Positions 36,243-39,292 of a stretch of DNA of 39,423 bases are shown here, piece by piece. Source of the DNA: Escherichia coli (GTDB lineage Bacteria > Pseudomonadota > Gammaproteobacteria > Enterobacterales > Enterobacteriaceae); the NCBI RefSeq assembly GCF_003334255.1, contig NZ_QOWU01000054.1, one strand, 5' to 3'. The notes under the pieces were generated by a model. It worked only from the letters and a program-made list of their open reading frames with translations, searched no databases and was not told the DNA's origin. The stretch's first letter is position 1. Each line of letters opens with the position of its first letter. Made by a program: the position numbers and the translations under genes.

Positions 36243-37478
36243 ATGCTGCAACAGGTTCCAACGCGTGCTTTTCATGTGATGGCGAAACCGAGCGGTTCCG
36301 ATTGTAATCTGAACTGTGACTACTGTTTTTATCTCGAAAAACAATCCCTTTACCGCGAAAAGCCAGTCACGCATATGGACGATGACACGCTGGAAGCGTA
36401 TGTCCGTCACTATATCGCTGCCAGCGAACCGCAAAACGAAGTGGCTTTTACCTGGCAGGGCGGCGAACCAAGGCTACTCGGGCTGGCGTTTTACCGCCGT
36501 GCCGTAGCGCTACAGGCGAAATATGGTGCTGGCAGGAAGATAAGTAACAGCTTCCAGACTAACGGCGTGCTGCTGGATGACGAATGGTGCGCGTTTCTCG
36601 CGGAGCATCATTTTCTTGTTGGTTTATCGCTGGATGGCCCGCCTGAGATCCACAATCAATATCGCGTGACTAAAGGTGGCAGACCCACGCATAAGCTGGT
36701 GATGCGTGCCCTGACGCTCCTGCAAAAACATCATGTCGACTATAACGTGCTGGTCTGCGTTAATCGCACCAGCGCGCAGCAACCGTTGCAGGTATATGAT
36801 TTTTTGTGCGATGCGGGAGTCGAATTCATCCAGTTTATTCCGGTGGTCGAGCGCCTGGCTGATGAAACAACTGCCCGCGATGGACTTAAGTTACATGCGC
36901 CTGGTGATATTCAGGGTGAGCTAACGGAATGGTCGGTGCGCCCCGAGGAGTTCGGTGAGTTTCTGGTGGCGATATTCGACCACTGGATCAAACGCGACGT
37001 CGGCAAGATTTTCGTGATGAATATCGAATGGGCGTTTGCCAATTTTGTCGGTGCGCCGGGTGCGGTTTGCCATCATCAGCCAACCTGTGGGCGCTCGGTG
37101 ATTGTTGAGCACAACGGCGACGTTTACGCCTGTGATCACTATGTTTATCCGCAATATTGGCTGGGGAATATGCACCAGCAAACAATTGCAGAAATGATCG
37201 ATTCCCCGCAACAGCAGGCGTTTGGTGAAGATAAATTTAAGCAGTTACCGGCGCAGTGTCGCAGTTGTAACGTGTTAAAAGCGTGCTGGGGAGGCTGCCC
37301 GAAACACCGCTTCATGCTCGATGCCAGCGGCAAACCGGGACTGAATTATTTGTGTGCCGGGTATCAGCGTTATTTCCGCCATCTACCGCCATATCTTAAA
37401 GCAATGGCTGATTTGCTGGCGCACGGTCGCCCGGCCAGCGACATTATGCATGCGCATTTGCTGGTGGTGAGTAAGTAG
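36243..37478 (+). CDS. aslB: Anaerobic sulfatase-maturating enzyme homolog (radical SAM / SPASM), 411 aa
   Basis: ORF track frame 36213..37478; start at MLQQVPTRAF with AAGGAG Shine-Dalgarno; CX3CX2C radical-SAM motif (CNLNCDYC) and C-terminal Cys clusters. Confidence 0.9.
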   Translation: MLQQVPTRAFHVMAKPSGSDCNLNCDYCFYLEKQSLYREKPVTHMDDDTLEAYVRHYIAASEPQNEVAFTWQGGEPRLLGLAFYRRAVALQAKYGAGRKISNSFQTNGVLLDDEWCAFLAEHHFLVGLSLDGPPEIHNQYRVTKGGRPTHKLVMRALTLLQKHHVDYNVLVCVNRTSAQQPLQVYDFLCDAGVEFIQFIPVVERLADETTARDGLKLHAPGDIQGELTEWSVRPEEFGEFLVAIFDHWIKRDVGKIFVMNIEWAFANFVGAPGAVCHHQPTCGRSVIVEHNGDVYACDHYVYPQYWLGNMHQQTIAEMIDSPQQQAFGEDKFKQLPAQCRSCNVLKACWGGCPKHRFMLDASGKPGLNYLCAGYQRYFRHLPPYLKAMADLLAHGRPASDIMHAHLLVVSK

Positions 37479-37504
37479 AAATCGGCGGCCGCCTGCGGTT
37501 GATT

Positions 37505-37609
37505 GCCGGATGCGGCGTAAACGCCTTATCCGGCCTACATGATCGTGCAAATTCAATAAATTGCAGCGTTCTGTAGGCTGGATAAGATGCGTCAGCATCG
37601 CATCCGGCA
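37505..37609. repeat. Pair of inverted REP elements (BIME-like) between convergent aslB and aslA
   Basis: GCCGGATGCGGCGTAAACGCCTTATCCGGCCTACA and TGTAGGCTGGATAAGATGCGTCAGCATCGCATCCGGCA in opposite orientation. Confidence 0.6.
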
Positions 37610-37636
37610 AAGGCAGATCTCAGCGATAGCGCCGGC

Positions 37637-39292
37637 TTAGTCAGATTTAATCTGCGCGCGTGGTGGATATTTTTTCAGGATCTCCATATACGCGTGCATT
37701 TCGGTCTGTAGCGGTACACCCATCGGAATATGGCGCACGCCGATGGAGTCGCTTTCCTGCGGATCGGTGTAGAGGTTAAACACCGACGATCCCGCCGTTT
37801 GCATTACTGTGCCGGTGAATCCACCCTGATATCCGCTCTGGGTATAAGCGTAAGGTTGCTGAATCAGGACGTGATACTTGAACTCATCCATACGCACAGC
37901 AGCGAGTTTACCGTTGAGGAAGTAGTGCTCGGCCTTACGGTTAGACTGACCATTTGTTCCCAGGAAGAAGGATGTCTGGTCCACACCATCGATAAAGGTG
38001 GTTTTCGGCACTAAATTCGCCACTTTCGCTCCAGGATGCCCTGCCAGATCCAGCGCGGTAGGGAAGAGATCTGCCAGATCGACAATACCGTCAGATTTAC
38101 GCGGTTGGATCATCCCTTTCCAGTAAACGAAAGTCGGTACGCGAACGCCGCCTTCCCAGGTCGAACCTTTCGCACCACGGAACGGGGTGCGTCCGTGCGG
38201 CGGTACTTCGGCTTCCGGTCCGTTATCGGAGGTAAAGACGATCAGCGTGTTATCAAGCTGACCGTTTTTCTCCAGTGTTTTATACAGATTAGCGAACACA
38301 TCGTTCATCTCCACCATGCAGTCGCCATACGAGGTGCGTGCCGGAGAGCTACCCGCATATTTCGCATTTGGGTAGTTATCGAAGTGGCAGCCACGAGTGC
38401 CGTAGTAGAGGAAGAATGGTTTATCGCTCTTCGCCATCTTGTCGAGGAACTTAACGCCATAGTCCATCCAGCGTTGATCCAGATCTTCCATATATTTCGG
38501 CGTAATGTCGGCAATGGCCTGTTGTTCGCCGCCGCGCACCGCATGAACGTCATCTTTGCTGAACGGTAATTGCTTGATGTATTCAGAACGGTCCGGACTC
38601 AGGGCCACTTCCGGATTGACGTGAACGTCGCGCCATTCGGTGTACATATCAGACACCGAGTTAAAGCCACGGAAATCATCAAAGCCAACGTTCTGCGGCT
38701 GCGACTCTTTGTTTTCCCCCATATGCCATTTTCCGATGGCCTGAGTGACGTAGCCCTGATCGTGCAGCAACTGCGGCAGCGTGGTTAACCCTTGCAGCCC
38801 GCCCGGTTGCCCGTACATTGGCGGCATCAGAATGCCGTGGTGGATGGAGTATTGTCCGGTGAGAATGGTGGCGCGGGTTGGGGAAGAGCTTGGTTGAGAA
38901 TACGCCGAAGTTAAAATCAGCCCCTGGCTGGCAACGGCGTCGATATCTGGTGTAGGGTTACCCACCGCCACGCCGCCACCGTTAAAACCGACGTCCATCC
39001 AGCCCACATCGTCCAGCAAGAAAACAACCACATTCGGTTTCTTACCGGTTTTTTTCTCAAGTTCTGCCAGCTTCTGCTGGGTTTCTTTATCCTGCGCCGG
39101 ATGCTGCATTACTGGCATCATATTGTCGGCAATAGTGGTCGCCGGTTTAACCAGATACTGGTTTGGGTGATCGTATCCGGCAAAGCCTTTGCGTGCGGTG
39201 GCAGTTGACGGGGTATCTGCTGCGCTGGCCATGAGAGGAAGAGCGGCGGCGACAGCAACAACAAGACGTTTGGGTGAAAACGAAAATTCCAT
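37637..39292 (-). CDS. aslA: Arylsulfatase-family protein with N-terminal signal peptide, 551 aa
   Basis: ORF track 551 aa; signal peptide [25 protein letters not shown]; sulfatase signature [11 protein letters not shown] (S-x-P-x-R). Confidence 0.9.

Follow-up and report, generated by a model that had tools for sequence, protein, structure and literature searches.

The aslA/aslB locus

The window analysed here is a stretch of 39,423 bp from an Escherichia coli assembly (GCF_003334255.1, contig NZ_QOWU01000054.1). It is a chromosomal segment collinear with K-12 MG1655, and its genes follow the K-12 order: the 5S rRNA gene of an rRNA operon, ilv, rep, rho, the wec cluster, thrP, four tRNA genes, aslB, and aslA. 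In this work, we focus on the last two genes, which encode a sulfatase and a putative enzyme for its maturation, and on the insertion sequence (IS) IS1, which begins upstream of aslA at the end of the window. RefSeq labels these genes in K-12 as "arylsulfatase AslA" (aslA, b3801) and "anaerobic sulfatase maturase" (aslB, b3800). An initial annotation of the window had described the two genes as a functional module, in which a serine-type sulfatase lies next to the radical S-adenosylmethionine (SAM) enzyme that such sulfatases need. This observation is correct but ordinary: because the window is 99.92% identical to K-12 over positions 1-39346, and aslA and aslB have long been annotated there, the pair was already known. 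The features of the pair in the window are as follows.

36243-37478, plus strand: aslB, anaerobic sulfatase-maturating enzyme with radical SAM and SPASM domains, 411 residues (from the open reading frame, Pfam, and NCBIfam)
36303-36326, plus strand: CNLNCDYC, AslB codons 21-28, the CX3CX2C ligands of the radical SAM [4Fe-4S] cluster
37068-37355, plus strand: AslB codons 276-371, with the eight Cys ligands of both auxiliary [4Fe-4S] clusters, and Asp298 (from the alignment to PDB 4K36)
37479-37636, no strand: spacer of 158 bp between the aslB and aslA stop codons, with REP/BIME-type inverted repeats
37637-39292, minus strand: aslA, S1 (formylglycine-dependent) sulfatase of the Ser type, 551 residues (from the open reading frame and Pfam)
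38168-39013, minus strand: the other AslA catalytic residues, D94, D95, K188, H190, H303, D356, N357, and K375 (from the alignment of 114 homologues)
39221-39292, minus strand: putative AslA export signal of the Sec type, codons 1-24 (translation read by eye)

The formylglycine position of AslA

The AslA protein is 100% identical to that of K-12, and the Pfam family Sulfatase (PF00884) matches its residues 86-418 over the full length of the model (E = 1.1e-71). The extended sulfatase signature [CS]-x-P-x-R-x4-[TS]-G has a single match in the protein, at residues 136-146. The corresponding plus-strand positions, 38855-38887, agree to the base with those of the initial annotation, and the Ser136 codon lies at 38885-38887.

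To place Ser136 within the family, we used an alignment of 114 homologues that are about 59-100% identical to AslA. Column 136 contains Cys in 82 and Ser in 32 of them, and it is the sole catalytic column that switches between these two residues; P138, R140, T145, and G146 of the signature are invariant. In a formylglycine precursor one would expect just this, a column restricted to Cys and Ser within a motif that is fixed elsewhere. The remaining catalytic residues are invariant in all homologues except K375, which is Lys in 113 and falls in a gap in one; their counterparts in human arylsulfatase A are its DD, GKWH, DNG, and KG motifs. The shorter motif SSPAR at residues 315-319 was considered as a second formylglycine site and was rejected as a chance match, since column 315 is Arg in 100 of the 114 homologues and is never Cys.

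Comparison with solved structures leads to the same position. Human arylsulfatase A is a lysosomal, Cys-type enzyme that is modified by the oxygen-dependent FGE. Ser136 aligns with its residue 69 (Cys69); the best-matching chains are C69S mutants, in which the motif reads L-S-T-P-S-R. In the closest solved relative of AslA, the Pseudoalteromonas fucoidan sulfatase PsFucS1 (PDB 7AJ0; SulfAtlas S1_13; E = 3e-101), Ser136 aligns with the Cys of the motif C-T-S-S-R, which is the catalytic residue of that enzyme (PMC8484680). The serine thus stands where arylsulfatase A and PsFucS1 have their catalytic Cys, as had been proposed; no different residue occupies the formylglycine position, and no catalytic residue of AslA is lacking.

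The alignment with PsFucS1 covers AslA residues 52-544 and includes the same catalytic residues. PsFucS1 nevertheless differs from AslA in being a Cys-type enzyme (C-T-S-S-R versus S-S-P-T-R in AslA; PMC8484680) and in being hexameric and produced in the cytoplasm; it acts on fucoidan oligosaccharides. Note that its motif has Ser where the sulfatase signature usually has Pro, and that this residue (Pro138) is invariant in the 114 closer homologues of AslA.

By inspection of the translation, as distinct from the result of a predictor, the N-terminus of AslA looks like a Sec-type signal, with K8 and R9 followed by a hydrophobic core and A-S-A, then A25. Sulfatases of the Ser type are periplasmic.

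AslB as a sulfatase maturase

AslB matches the Pfam domains Radical_SAM (E = 7.7e-17) and SPASM (E = 4.2e-11). Its score against the NCBIfam model TIGR03942, "anaerobic sulfatase maturase", is 513.3 bits, well above the cut-off of 349.45, which supports its assignment as a radical SAM anaerobic sulfatase maturase; against PRK13745 it scores 466, just under the cut-off of 484. Nearly all of its length can also be aligned to the structure of the Clostridium perfringens maturase anSMEcpe (PDB 4K36, of the set 4K36-4K39; E = 3e-62).

The motif CNLNCDYC and the C-terminal Cys clusters that the initial annotation had pointed out are all present, and each of the 11 cluster Cys has a counterpart in anSMEcpe. 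In particular, C21, C25, and C28 align with C15, C19, and C22 of 4K36. Among the auxiliary-cluster ligands, C276, C282, C297, and C352 align with C255, C261, C276, and C330 of Aux I, and C339, C342, C348, and C371 align with C317, C320, C326, and C348 of Aux II, the list of ligands being taken from PMC5715301. AslB also shares with anSMEcpe the GGE motif and the Asp that follows the third auxiliary Cys. In an alignment of 115 AslB homologues, C297, D298, and H299 are invariant. Asp298 aligns with Asp277 of anSMEcpe, the proposed catalytic base of that enzyme. The natural substrate of anSMEcpe is a Cys-type sulfatase. According to one report (PMC11215262), recombinant human sulfatases showed up to 4.6-fold higher activity when E. 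coli AslB was overexpressed.

The archetype of a Ser-type periplasmic sulfatase with a three-cluster radical SAM maturase is AtsA/AtsB of Klebsiella pneumoniae, which the E. coli pair resembles by description. The clusters of AtsB are mentioned in PMC5715301.

Convergent arrangement of the pair

The genes aslB (plus strand) and aslA (minus strand) are arranged tail to tail. The convergence noted in the initial annotation is therefore correct, but the distance, given there as 160 bp, is 158 bp. The spacer contains inverted repeats at 37503-37534, 37525-37586, and 37599-37610, from which we infer that it may serve as a two-way transcription stop. The arrangement is not that of the Klebsiella-type atsBA operon, where maturase and sulfatase genes lie on the same strand and are co-transcribed; the E. 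coli genes converge and have separate promoters.

To see how far this layout extends, we considered a small sample of AslA orthologues, four of the Ser type from distant organisms and four of the Cys type. In three of the four Ser-type cases (Uliginosibacterium, a deltaproteobacterium, and a metagenome contig), a radical SAM/SPASM gene lies directly downstream in convergent orientation, as in E. coli, separated from the sulfatase gene by about 47-70 bp; around the fourth, no maturase gene lies within 5 kb. The Cys-type orthologues are more varied: two have no neighbouring maturase, one has an FGE gene and a radical SAM gene, both upstream, and one has a radical SAM gene upstream on the same strand. 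The convergent linkage conserved in distant Proteobacteria supports the view of aslA and aslB as a functional pair, as first suggested for this window.

Substitutions in AslB

Within the 3247 bp of the aslB/aslA region that the window shares with K-12, there are only two nucleotide differences. Both are in aslB and both change an amino acid.

36471-36473, plus strand: AslB codon 77, AGG (Arg) here versus ACG (Thr) in K-12
37158-37160, plus strand: AslB codon 306, TGG (Trp) here versus CGG (Arg) in K-12

Residue 77 lies between the invariant motif QGGEP and the invariant L78, both of which are present in this AslB; the GGE motif of radical SAM enzymes binds SAM. Of the 115 homologues, 107 have T at this position, 6 have A, and 2 have S, while none has R, and the T77R allele occurs in 0 of 5348 matched complete E. 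coli genomes. Position 306 varies more: 77 homologues have R there, 14 have H, 11 have L, and 8 have K, but none has W, and the R306W allele occurs in eight complete genomes. At these two positions anSMEcpe, unlike the AslB of the window, has Thr69 and Arg285.

The exact protein with both changes is found on 7 contigs by a cluster look-up and on at least 9 by a contig look-up, while the K-12 form is found on at least 1000. Sequencing error is ruled out as the source of the two changes, since the protein recurs on at least nine contigs from independent assemblies and read sets. Selection on aslB was likewise considered and is unsupported: the gene has two changes where 0.39 are expected (P about 0.06), and 9 of the 11 coding differences in the window as a whole are nonsynonymous. 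T77R and R306W may be as important to the module as the IS1 insertion.

IS1 in the aslA upstream region

The identity with K-12 ends at 39346; the IS1 element that follows starts 54 bp upstream of the aslA ATG.

39293-39346, minus strand: remnant of the native aslA upstream region, 54 bp from the start codon to IS1 (identity with K-12)
39347-39423, plus strand: left end of IS1, comprising the inverted repeat and the first part of insA, which is oriented away from aslA

The left inverted repeat, GGTGATGCTGCCAACTTACTGAT, starts at 39347 and is followed by the start of insA; the window stops 77 bp into the element, so that the far end and the target duplication lie outside it. These 77 bp are the same as the start of an element in strain EP91B, inserted 10 bp away, that is annotated with an IS1B-family transposase. 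The identical junction is present in a near-identical public draft contig of 39670 bp, one of those that carry the exact AslB protein of the window, which also ends inside IS1, and another contig ends 4 bp before IS1. The window is probably a draft contig that was broken at the IS1 repeat.

On the aslA strand, neither a promoter-scanning tool nor our own scan at 8/12 matches found a sigma-70-like promoter within the 54 bp or across the IS1 junction. A hybrid promoter formed by IS1 and the chromosome and facing aslA, which was considered as a candidate, is thus rejected even at this relaxed threshold. The likeliest effect of IS1 is probably that aslA has been separated from its native promoter and regulatory region. 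The initial annotation had suggested that IS1 could perturb expression of the module. The element does lie in the aslA upstream region; its reach, however, does not extend to the whole module. Since aslB is served by a separate promoter, located downstream of the terminator of the tRNA operon, IS1 can affect only aslA.

In K-12, the spacer between aslA and hemY is uninterrupted, is 678 bp long, and holds the small-RNA gene glmZ. The 5' end of glmZ lies about 370 bp beyond the insertion point, so glmZ is probably unaffected in this strain. For the same reason, we rejected the sequence TTGAGA-N16-GATGAT beside the IS1 site, taken from the Shimada table, as the glmZ promoter. For the spacer between aslA and glmZ, an H-NS site is on record (PMC3946193), and H-NS reportedly silences both aslA and aslB.

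Insertions at this locus occur in other strains as well, and IS1 is found at two further positions in the aslA upstream spacer. EP91B (locus positions 4038-6505) has an independent IS1 44 bp upstream of aslA, with an 8-bp flank overlap corresponding to the target duplication, together with a stop at aslA codon 257. The complete genome of 23CRST047 (locus positions about 6100-6857) has IS1 some 400 bp upstream of aslA, no more than about 25 bp from the start of glmZ (5080-5100 in K-12 locus coordinates, with the glmZ start at 5118), an insertion that may disrupt the glmZ promoter. In further genomes, IS1, IS2, ISApl1, or ISVsa5 is annotated at the locus, in some cases splitting aslA or aslB into two annotated pieces. 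From these insertions and the aslA stop, the locus is evidently dispensable under many conditions.

Other differences from K-12 in the window

Over the 39.3 kb compared, the window and K-12 differ by 14 substitutions, of which 11 are coding and nine are nonsynonymous: ilvE E56D, ilvD G616D, ilvA S4L, rep K202E, rffH R47S, rffT R356G, wzyE V11I, and the two in aslB. The direction of change between the window and K-12 alleles was determined for aslB only. The proportion of nonsynonymous changes fits a very recent divergence from K-12.

Two further differences concern the ilv genes. In ilvL (3620-3703, plus strand), short direct repeats flank an in-frame deletion of 15 bp, which shortens the leader peptide of ilvGMEDA from 32 to 27 residues (MTALLRVISLVVIIIPPCGAALGRGKA) and takes out five regulatory Val/Ile/Ser codons. 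The deletion is present in 0 of 5426 complete E. coli genomes, all of which match the 79-mer as two pieces spanning 94 bp; it could change the attenuation of branched-chain amino-acid synthesis. At 4819-4820, the window has two bases (AT) that are absent from K-12 at the position of the K-12 ilvG frameshift, and from this nucleotide comparison ilvG is therefore predicted to be intact.

Two Rfam families exceed the gathering score in the window: Rev39_5p_UTR, which covers the ilv leader region (3546-3823, plus strand, 135 bits) and the TrxA 5'-untranslated region thermometer (18976-19075, plus strand, 79 bits).

Interpretation

We consider it likely that the locus is the known aslA/aslB pair, in which AslB would oxidise Ser136 of AslA for a periplasmic sulfatase, and that the pair is possibly weakened in this lineage. 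The mechanism is modelled by homology on the Klebsiella AtsA/AtsB and Clostridium anSME systems. The AslA precursor would carry a Sec-type signal peptide. AslB would act on it in the cytoplasm before it folds, converting Ser136 to formylglycine by an oxidation that uses SAM and the three iron-sulfur clusters of AslB, after which AslA would be exported to the periplasm. Sulfate esters would be cleaved there by the hydrated formylglycine together with a metal ion, which D94, D95, D356, and N357 would bind, and the residues K188, H190, H303, and K375. In this strain, IS1 leaves aslA with 54 bp of its upstream region, and AslB carries Arg next to the SAM-binding GGE motif, in addition to R306W. 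The separation by IS1 and the two substitutions together predict that the module may be weakened in this lineage.

Several points weigh against this reading. AslB as the enzyme that modifies AslA, and AslA as an active sulfatase, are inferred, and what T77R, R306W, and IS1 do is a matter of prediction. AslA scores under the cut-off of every curated NCBIfam sulfatase model, so that none of them assigns it a specificity, and "arylsulfatase" is therefore a nominal name for it. The two genes are convergent instead of forming an operon. A literature search found no report of AslB modifying AslA or of AslA hydrolysing a sulfate ester in E. coli, and K-12 is not known to show arylsulfatase activity under laboratory conditions. 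In addition, E. coli has a second candidate maturase, YdeM, which is encoded outside the window, and Benjdia et al. reportedly found in 2007 that aslB and ydeM deletions did not abolish the maturation of a Cys-type sulfatase.

The most serious alternative supplements the likely reading and does not replace it: the pair may be present but non-functional or decaying here, with the aslA promoter removed by IS1, AslB crippled by T77R, and no active sulfatase, a possibility that we hold tentatively. It draws on the position of IS1, 54 bp from the start codon and facing away from aslA with no promoter-like site left on the aslA strand, on the restriction of residue 77 to T, A, or S between invariant neighbours, on the absence of the T77R allele from 5426 complete genomes, and on the signs of decay elsewhere, such as the IS1 and stop codon of EP91B and the IS elements that split aslA or aslB. 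However, both reading frames are intact in the window, AslA is unchanged from K-12, and AslB scores far over the TIGR03942 cut-off. The two aslB changes fit recent mutation that has not yet been purged, and are no evidence of selection; the loss of the aslA promoter is a prediction. The strain details (IS1, T77R, and R306W) are small and are consistent with neutral decay. It is quite unlikely that the module has instead been actively rewired or shut down in a small lineage, with IS1 uncoupling aslA from the H-NS-bound region and T77R changing or abolishing the maturase activity.

A different role for IS1 would be that it turns aslA on by breaking up the AT-rich, H-NS-bound sequence upstream, as insertions do at the bgl operon. 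IS1-created promoters and the activation of bgl are known, the listed H-NS site lies in the spacer concerned, and IS1 has entered that spacer at three different positions in different strains. Nevertheless, we regard activation as very unlikely, since no promoter-like site faces aslA across the junction even at 8/12 matches, insA reads away from the gene, and the nearby IS1 of EP91B is accompanied by an aslA nonsense mutation, which points to dispensability. The regulation of aslB raises another alternative, that AslB is not the physiological partner of AslA, which would be modified by YdeM or another system while AslB serves elsewhere, for example in H-NS/GadE acid resistance. H-NS represses aslB, whose expression is 12.9-fold higher in an hns mutant, and RcsB/GadE, which bind the aslB promoter, activate it (PMC2984483); HdfR and AdiY also control the gene, whose promoter is separate from that of aslA. 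In an hns background, deletion of aslB slightly lowers glutamate-dependent acid resistance, but the effect is small, with a survival of 38.6% versus 51.7% (PMC2984483), and although a third sulfatase maturation system is suspected in E. coli (PMC8379841), the match of AslB to sulfatase maturases is at the equivalog level and the convergent pairing is conserved in distant taxa. We therefore judge a separate role for AslB to be unlikely. Finally, Ser136 might act unconverted, as a direct nucleophile like that of other enzymes of the alkaline-phosphatase superfamily. AslA has weak Pfam matches to Phosphodiest and related families, and some unmodified sulfatases keep low activity (PMC6189696). This is highly improbable, because close homologues have Cys at position 136 within the otherwise invariant S-P-T-R...T-G motif and because a dedicated maturase gene adjoins aslA.

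Significance

The pair itself carries little general biological weight, since both genes are routinely annotated in E. coli and it is established how serine-type sulfatases are matured chemically. The strain details have a modest practical value, as aslA is often scored by presence or absence as a virulence or invasion marker. If the quite unlikely rewiring by IS1 and T77R were true, it would alter the surface-interaction or invasion trait that is attributed to aslA. The aslA gene of this window is intact, but IS1 interrupts the region upstream of it and the enzyme presumed to activate its product has a residue that is not family-like, so that the presence of the gene need not mean that it functions.

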